Assembly (NCBI RefSeq): GCF_054482595.1
Contig: NZ_CM137008.1
Length of the DNA: 64,000 nt
Direction: 5' to 3' (one strand)
In this document: piece by piece, positions 2,814-3,175 of the stretch
Numbering within the stretch: the stretch's first letter is position 1
Layout of the letters: each line of letters begins with the position of its first letter
Program-made: the position numbers and the translations under genes
Notes under the pieces: model-generated
Databases searched by the model: none
The model's input: only the letters and a program-made list of their open reading frames with translations
Told to the model about the DNA's origin: nothing

Positions 2814-2966
2814 CTAATAATCGCCTAATCCAAACACCTCATTCATGTTCTGGTACAGTCGCTCAAATGTACTCCGGATACACGGTTCGCTGATTTCCAG
2901 GACATTGTCGTCATTCAGCGACCTGTCCCGTGTATCACGGGCCTGCGAATTCATCAAGGAATGCAT
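2814..2966 (-). other. Unannotated short coding-like frame (about 50 aa from an internal ATG; open frame extends to 3050); possible remnant of a disrupted gene
   Basis: Hand translation of the minus strand gives ...ILHSAMHSLMNSQARDTRDRSLNDDNVLEISEPCIRSTFERLYQNMNEVFGLGDY*; below the 60-aa ORF-track cutoff. Confidence 0.2.
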
Positions 2967-3175
2967 TGCGGAGTGAAGTATCGAGTCACGCCATATTTCG
3001 CGATCAGGATTCTGTGTGATGGTTACATCGCCCGGCCCAGGGCTGTTTAGTCATCAGCGCTTTCTGACAGTGCTGAGATTTCAACCTGTTGCAGTAAAAA
3101 TGAGTAGATATAAGGTAAGTGTGCTGCCAAACCTATCTTTTACGGGGTGAAGGTAGATTTCGTTTGAAGGGTATC

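Follow-up and report, generated by a model that had tools for sequence, protein, structure and literature searches.

An open frame between cscB and argW in Escherichia coli is very probably the non-functional remnant of a DUF4942 gene from a genomic island

The spacer that separates the sucrose permease gene cscB from the tRNA gene argW contains, on the minus strand, a run of 78 codons that is closed by a stop and lacks a convincing start. This raises the question of whether it is a small-protein gene, the remains of a larger gene or a frame that arose by chance. A preliminary description of this window (the whole stretch of 64,000 nucleotides analysed here) had favoured the 3′ fragment of a gene truncated by the csc module, with an unannotated small protein as the alternative. 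We consider it very probable that positions 2824–3111 (minus strand) hold a non-functional relic of a DUF4942 gene, of the L0010 type that is the terminal gene of CP4-44-like tRNA-linked islands, and that this relic is a fossil of the csc haplotype. The frame and its neighbours are as follows.

501–1415: cscK (ORF list and annotation)
1487–2734, plus strand: cscB, sucrose permease, the constant neighbour of the relic (ORF list, annotation, genome counts)
2814–3050, minus strand: the 78-codon stop-free frame (translation; Pfam DUF4942 match with E = 3.8e-10 over frame residues 16–73)
2814–2966, minus strand: ORF of 50 amino acids, the longest ATG-started ORF within the frame (ORF list; called ‘DUF4942 domain-containing protein’ by RefSeq/PGAP in some genomes)
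3176–3250, minus strand: argW, tRNA-Arg(CCU), an integration hotspot adjoining the relic (ARAGORN; Rfam tRNA, 63.4 bits)
3326–4258, minus strand: yfdC (ORF list and annotation)
4552–5307, plus strand: mlaA (ORF list and annotation)

Read from 3053 to 2814, the minus strand translates as stop-LNSPGPGDVTITQNPDREIWRDSILHSAMHSLMNSQARDTRDRSLNDDNVLEISEPCIRSTFERLYQNMNEVFGLGDY-stop, which is exactly the translation given in the preliminary description: 78 sense codons (3050–2817) between a TGA (3051–3053) and a TAG (2814–2816). The flanking genes also stand as first described, with cscB on the plus strand and argW on the minus strand, and the earlier estimate that internal ATGs yield at most about 50 amino acids agrees with the longest ATG-started ORF. 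No Shine–Dalgarno sequence precedes the ATG at 2966 and no sigma-70-like promoter was seen upstream, in line with the reported lack of a convincing start and ribosome-binding site.

The length of the frame is within chance. Stop-free runs of at least 78 codons arose in 1502 of 5000 shuffles (30%) of the 441-bp spacer (2735–3175), as would be expected if the frame were an accident of non-coding DNA with no coding ancestry. That explanation nevertheless retains next to no probability, given a significant and collinear homology, in both protein and DNA, to an established family. It is this protein homology (Pfam, BLASTP), and not the length, that sets the frame above chance. The 78-residue translation matches Pfam PF13708 (DUF4942) with 40.2 bits (E = 3.8e-10), above the gathering threshold of 25 bits, and aligns without gaps to residues 76–151 of one intact 281-amino-acid protein at 54% identity (BLASTP, E = 2e-22). 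The Pfam match is confined to profile positions 5–62 of 190, whereas the intact protein covers positions 1–189 with its residues 87–275; the relic does not hold a complete domain.

The preliminary description had proposed blastp and tblastn searches for homologues, and full-length DUF4942 genes do exist elsewhere in E. coli. These full-length relatives came from blastn at distant settings against E. coli genomes; a word-indexed protein search with the 78-residue frame returned ORF variants of the relic itself and no full-length relative. Among 5,426 complete E. coli genomes, the sensitive blastn search gave two classes of match. The first is the same locus at 90–100% identity, in about 2,624 genomes, and the second consists of 846-bp genes for a ‘DUF4942 domain-containing protein’ at 74–78% identity in further E. 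coli genomes; no copy with 80–90% identity to the relic was present in this set. We also scanned the contigs of a genome collection with the degenerate pattern GAYCGNGARATHTGGCGNGAY, which matched at least 120 loci, almost all of them chance matches in high-GC genomes. Among the scan matches listed, real DUF4942 genes occurred only in E. albertii, Serratia sp. DD3 and a few metagenome-assembled genome (MAG) contigs, and none was nearer to the relic than 55–62% amino-acid identity. Short contigs with DUF4942 genes also turned up in two Collinsella sp. MAGs (L059 and L060) and a Clostridia MAG (L133). The proteins from these Gram-positive gut MAGs are 84–95% identical to the product of the E. 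coli island gene, a pattern that suggests Enterobacteriaceae DNA contaminating the bins.

In the two intact loci inspected (L003 and L004), the DUF4942 gene is the last in the series DUF932, antirestriction, JAB/RadC, DUF987, CbeA, CbtA, DUF5983, DUF957 and DUF4942, and in one of the two this module is preceded by Ag43. The module from DUF932 to DUF957 and DUF4942 is the backbone of CP4-44-type islands. The family includes L0010 of the LEE island of O157:H7 and orf56 of the Shigella SRL island (PMC6980539), and comprises 2,191 representative clusters at E ≤ 0.001, mostly of 255–300 amino acids. Among the phage relatives are some that carry a DNA methyltransferase annotation or are fused to such an enzyme. 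In PHROGs, the matches of the parent protein are limited to families of ‘unknown function’ and to one ‘DNA methyltransferase’ family, in its N-terminal half; the protein had no match in NCBIfam, PADLOC or a PDB sequence search. An AlphaFold2 model of the intact protein (pLDDT 88.7) has a helical N-terminal half (residues 24–159) and an alpha/beta C-terminal half (167–273), with no convincing relative among solved structures. What the relic keeps is part of the helical N-terminal half alone.

Alignment to the intact gene resolves the spacer into the following parts.

3111–3023, minus strand: relic block A, parent nucleotides 110–198 (codons 37–66), in a frame other than that of the 78 codons (tblastn and blastn, gapped alignment, translation)
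3022/3023: junction of a 55-bp deletion, parent nucleotides 199–253 (gapped alignment; the two blocks lie in different tblastn frames)
3022–2824, minus strand: relic block B, parent nucleotides 254–452 (codons 85–151), in the 78-codon frame (blastn, gapped alignment, BLASTP)
2814–2823: 3′ truncation junction, at which DUF4942 homology ends at about codon 151 of 281 of the parent (BLASTP, alignment, Pfam extent of the intact protein)
3112–3175: 64 bp that separate the relic from the argW 3′ end and are confined to the csc haplotype (genome search, K-12 comparison)
2735–2813: csc-side spacer of 79 bp with an 11-bp perfect inverted repeat (kept in csc-positive strains that lack the relic)

Block A was recovered by tblastn (parent residues 38–65 against window positions 3026–3109, 46% identity, frame −3) and by blastn (73.9%). 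In the ancestral frame it reads YIYSFLLQQVEISALSESADD-stop-TALGRAM-stop, where the parent has QINTLIRQLAEISAMTESIGGKTALDWAMK; the two in-frame TAA stops fall at parent Lys58 and Lys66 (AAA to TAA). Block B is 77.8% identical by blastn to positions 6001–6203 of L003. The 55-bp deletion between the blocks amounts to 18 codons plus 1 nucleotide and shifts the frame at 3022/3023, so that about nine codons at the head of the 78-codon frame (3050–3024), which overlap block A, are out of the ancestral frame. At the other end, the final residues DY and the TAG at 2814–2816 consist of junction sequence with the 79-bp csc-side spacer, and the sequence common to this locus and to the relic-less variants L002 and L012 ends at 2813. 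On these alignments the TAG is a fortuitous stop made by the junction and not the native one, and the 78-codon frame exists because block B happens to contain no stop in this strain before that TAG. With two TAA codons in block A, a frameshifting deletion, no native start and a stop derived from the junction, the relic offers no uninterrupted frame. It is best described as an internally deleted and doubly truncated copy in which only codons of about 37–66 and about 85–151 of 281 survive.

The anatomy bears directly on the reading first proposed, namely a 3′-terminal fragment whose 5′ part was removed by the csc insertion and whose TAG at 2814–2816 is native. A frame with a stop and without a start, placed at the junction of csc and argW, is what such a fragment would look like. 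However, the frame aligns to residues 76–151 of 281 and to only the early part of the Pfam profile, about 130 parent codons are still due beyond the site of the TAG, and homology upstream runs on to codon 37 in the other frame. Moreover, csc lies on the 3′ side of the relic, so its insertion could have taken the 3′ half alone. We therefore regard a 3′-terminal fragment as extremely unlikely. The preliminary description correctly saw, at the junction of csc and argW, what truncation has left of a real gene; the remnant is internal, spanning residues of about 37–151 of 281, with both ends gone.

Two further stretches of the spacer were considered. The 64-bp segment at 3112–3175 was tried as a further decayed 5′ part of the DUF4942 gene and rejected, as its local-alignment score was equalled by 63–72% of shuffles. 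This segment is present in about 2,630 genomes, all of them csc-positive, and is absent from K-12, where homology to the window ends exactly at the 3′ end of argW (3176). On the csc side, an inverted repeat at 2744–2754 and 2777–2787 (TTTTCCGGTTG and CAACCGGAAAA) is perfect over 11 bp and encloses a 22-nucleotide loop directly after the cscB stop. No T-run accompanies this possible 3′ stem-loop of cscB, which falls within the 79 bp that are 100% identical in L002.

If the frame encoded a protein, selection should have left a trace. Seven alleles, a small sample, were compared over the region that begins with cscB and ends at argW. In the spacer, 43 of 441 sites vary, compared with 40 of 1248 for cscB, and pN/pS (Nei–Gojobori) is 0.77 for the relic frame (pS 0.047, pN 0.036) against 0.07 for cscB (pS 0.053). 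Variable sites are spread over codon positions 1, 2 and 3 as 5:8:8 in the relic frame and as 10:1:28 in cscB. Compared with its intact paralogues, the relic has diverged by 24–27%, evenly over codon positions (23:20:27), whereas intact genes compared with each other give 3:4:16. At the nucleotide level the relic is about as diverse as cscB is at its synonymous sites, as neutral drift would produce from the coalescence of the csc haplotype onwards. Among 63 diverse full-length DUF4942 members, the residues W95, P126, D201, H254 and N267 are invariant in the alignment; the relic keeps W95, replaces P126 with L and has lost D201, H254 and N267 with the missing half. The near-invariant W116 is replaced by R, and G103 by A.

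The frame is also broken in many of its carriers, most often at one codon.

2874–2876, minus strand: frame codon 59, which reads CGG (Arg) here and TGA in the commonest allele (allele alignment, exact 41-mers)

The change from CGG to TGA was seen in allele L006, and the exact 41-mer with TGA occurs in 1493 genomes, against about 2,623 carriers of the relic; the 41-mer of the window type was matched in 501 genomes, 370 of them at 99% identity or more. Allele L007 has a 1-bp deletion at 3036, and two ORFs from the database (P0016 and P0025) represent alleles with an 18-bp deletion. ORFs called at this locus range from 44 to 85 amino acids and begin at start codons that differ between genomes. 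No coding constraint is detectable in the drift of the relic, and most strains carry it in interrupted form.

A genuine small-protein gene of 50–78 codons on the minus strand, miniaturized or exapted from a DUF4942 fragment, has some observations in its favour: PGAP calls a CDS in many genomes, the frame is unbroken in the window and in some other strains, and pN/pS falls to 0.44 over the 50-codon ORF alone. This last value comes from few sites and formally leaves room for weak constraint on that part. We nevertheless find such a gene very unlikely, given the nonsense codon in the commonest allele, the 18-bp deletion and upstream frameshift alleles, the inconstant starts and lengths, the lack of any visible promoter or Shine–Dalgarno sequence, the even codon-position spectrum with a whole-frame pN/pS of 0.77, and the loss of family-invariant residues. 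The frame is not intact across carrier strains and bears no pattern of purifying selection. The small-protein alternative of the preliminary description fails on these grounds, above all on the majority nonsense codon, the pN/pS of the whole frame and the replaced residues.

A more adventurous proposal concerns the uninterrupted minority alleles, including that of the window. These might be translated into a helical peptide of 50–73 amino acids, corresponding in the structural model to the helices at 79–151 of the DUF4942 N-terminal bundle, and such a peptide would perhaps be exapted, for example to interfere with the intact DUF4942 paralogues found on other islands in many E. coli. In a milder variant, csc itself would have reached E. 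coli as cargo lying beyond the DUF4942 gene in a CP4-type island integrated at argW, for which Nissle 1917, with kps genes beyond its DUF4942 gene, offers a parallel. We attach only a very small probability to this proposal.

Database annotation of the locus is inconsistent. The relic had been described as unannotated, which is true of some genomes, in which no feature is given; in others a CDS is called, including strain XH990, which is 100% identical and in which RefSeq names the 50-residue ORF ‘DUF4942 domain-containing protein’ (WP_032151049.1). Labels assigned by PGAP vary by genome among ‘DUF4942 domain-containing protein’ of 50, 60 or 73 amino acids, ‘hypothetical protein’ and no feature at all, and in the RefSeq loci inspected the relic was never marked as a pseudogene. 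RefSeq has therefore already flagged the DUF4942 homology here, but its CDS calls are inconsistent and also wrong, since the feature is a pseudogene. These calls stem from the Pfam match and not from evidence of expression. We found no paper that discusses the relic, in a literature search that did not extend to Jahreis 2002 and Moritz & Welch 2006, the primary descriptions of this locus.

The distribution of the relic follows that of csc almost perfectly. Of the 5,426 complete E. coli genomes, 2,623 contain the 441-bp spacer with a coverage of at least 80%, and 2,632–2,645 contain the cscB 3′ end together with the adjoining 79 bp. The relic accordingly occurs in more than 99% of csc-positive complete genomes, or about half of all complete genomes, and in no csc-negative genome among the 5,426. 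Strains that lack csc, K-12 included, have entirely different DNA after argW. PMC11251922 and PMC4366372 mention argW as a recombination hotspot and cite Jahreis 2002 and Moritz & Welch 2006 for the variable argW-dsdCXA/csc island. At this locus, csc replaces dsdC and part of dsdX.

Two csc-positive strains without the relic, L002 and L012, show what later traffic at argW can do. In both, cscB and the 79 bp up to 2813 are followed by ISEc46 (IS200/IS605) and then by the first 94 codons of intS. This intS fragment is 97.8% identical to intS of CPS-53 in K-12 and belongs to a CPS-53-like prophage. The likeliest course for the two loci is that an ancestor of the relic type acquired a prophage at argW and then suffered an IS-associated deletion. 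The hairpin end of ISEc46 starts at the window equivalent of 2813/2814 (6079/6080 in L002 and 6034/6035 in L012), no more than 10 bp from the 3′ junction of the relic (2814–2823), and the sequence there runs ...gcttagccctg followed by gtgactgctccccgccctgtcgggcgagg. A target-site preference, or an earlier insertion sequence at the same site, could account for this coincidence.

Other strains keep both the relic and a newer element. In L006 and L011 (EBJ001 and AREA_R504), a torI-bearing prophage lies between the relic and argW, at the equivalent of 3175/3176, and in L006 (2941–3040) the 15-bp attR core tggtgtcccctgcag comes directly after the relic. A different element, with a ‘recombinase family protein’, occupies the same interval in O157:H7 Rafaela_II (L013). 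Because these prophages sit between the relic and argW, the relic must be older than, and lie outside, the present traffic at the argW attachment site.

The relic also appears in two GenBank records of phages, ON470608.1 (‘Escherichia phage vB_EcoS-733R5’; L134, 3495–9258) and ON470622.1, which end in integrase, tRNA-Arg(CCT), relic, cscB, cscK and cscA. As these ‘complete phage genomes’ end in the relic and csc, they include several kilobases of the host chromosome beside an argW prophage. In these records the relic is labelled ‘A-kinase anchor protein 5’ and ‘hypothetical protein’. A further variable locus lies between mlaA and fadL, where a low-GC patch (0.31–0.35, against about 0.47 around it) contains a 343-amino-acid ORF (5700–6731, minus strand) that is rich in Asn, Asp and Ile, carries the internal repeat ...IGIDNQEPIK... 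twice, has no Pfam match and is annotated as hypothetical in XH990. This ORF is absent from L007, L009 and L010; L002 has another hypothetical ORF of 422 amino acids at this position and K-12 has yfdF.

The near-universal linkage invites another explanation, that the block is kept for a role in cis, in argW 3′ processing or termination, as the outer arm of a phage attachment site or as a cscB terminator, with the frame incidental. The presence of the 362-bp block in more than 99% of csc-positive genomes would fit such a role, as would the precise integration of prophages between the block and argW, which leaves the block intact. In the interval 2650–3330, however, no promoter-like or terminator-like site rose above the shuffled background and no Rfam family was matched besides the tRNA. 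L002 and L012 are viable with csc and argW and without the whole block, csc-negative strains such as K-12 have unrelated DNA in its place, and the diversity of the frame (pN 0.036, pS 0.047) is near the pS of cscB (0.053), as fits drift linked to csc. A cis-acting role therefore has a slim chance at best.

We return to the DUF4942 relic and to how it may have come about. We infer that an island ending in DUF4942, or the distal end of one, formerly adjoined argW. In the proposed course of events, a CP4-44-type island or its distal end would have stood at argW, pointing away from the tRNA as expected for integration at a tRNA 3′ end. Deletions would then have removed everything between argW (plus 64 bp) and parent codon 37, integrase and cargo included. 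The arrival of csc at argW, at the expense of dsdC and the 5′ portion of dsdX, would have cut the gene at about codon 151, after which the 362-bp block would have hitch-hiked with csc while later prophages integrated on its argW side. The preliminary description had likewise made the csc insertion the cause of the truncation. For the 3′ end this is plausible because relic and csc co-occur almost perfectly, and we infer it on that basis. A repeat search of 2650–3330 found no attR copy of the argW 3′ end; no integrase ORF or remnant lies in that interval, or between 2735 and 3175 within it, and no E. coli genome examined has an intact DUF4942-ending island at argW.

The relic is an ordinary pseudogene fossil of a kind that is common beside tRNA integration hotspots, and it carries little biological weight. 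Its consequences are mainly practical. RefSeq calls of a ‘DUF4942 domain-containing protein’ of 44–85 amino acids at this locus are annotation artefacts, in place of which a single pseudogene feature is due. The csc haplotype can conveniently be followed with the 362-bp block (2814–3175) as a neutral marker, and the alleles of the block (the TGA, the 18-bp deletion and the 1-bp deletion) could help to trace the history of csc. The relic also hints that a CP4-44-type island was present at argW before or during the acquisition of csc.

Set beside the DUF4942 proteins of known islands (L0010, orf56 and WP_001280435.1), the relic is collinear with residues of about 37–66 and 85–151, at 54% amino-acid and 74–78% nucleotide identity, and like them it keeps the DREIWRD motif with the invariant W95. 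Its parent gene is the last in the distal module of CP4-44- and CP4-57-type islands (Ag43, followed by antirestriction, RadC/JAB, DUF987, CbeA, CbtA, DUF5983, DUF957 and DUF4942). Its position also agrees with that of such islands, as the relic (3111 to 2824, minus strand) begins 64 bp from argW (3176–3250, minus strand) and points away from the tRNA 3′ end. Unlike CP4-44-type islands, the window has none of the other genes of the module, among them the cbeA-cbtA-DUF5983-DUF957 series that lies upstream of the DUF4942 gene in L003 and L004, and the relic locus has neither a tyrosine integrase by the tRNA nor an attR repeat; the island ancestry at argW is thus putative. The closest comparison by location is with CPS-53 of K-12, with its pawZ pseudo-tRNA end, and with the variable argW-dsdCXA/csc island, which share the locus and the same repeated integration and decay beside argW. 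CPS-53 is a phage remnant with the intS integrase and a 15-bp attR, whereas the relic derives from a non-phage island gene and lies outside the phage attachment site.
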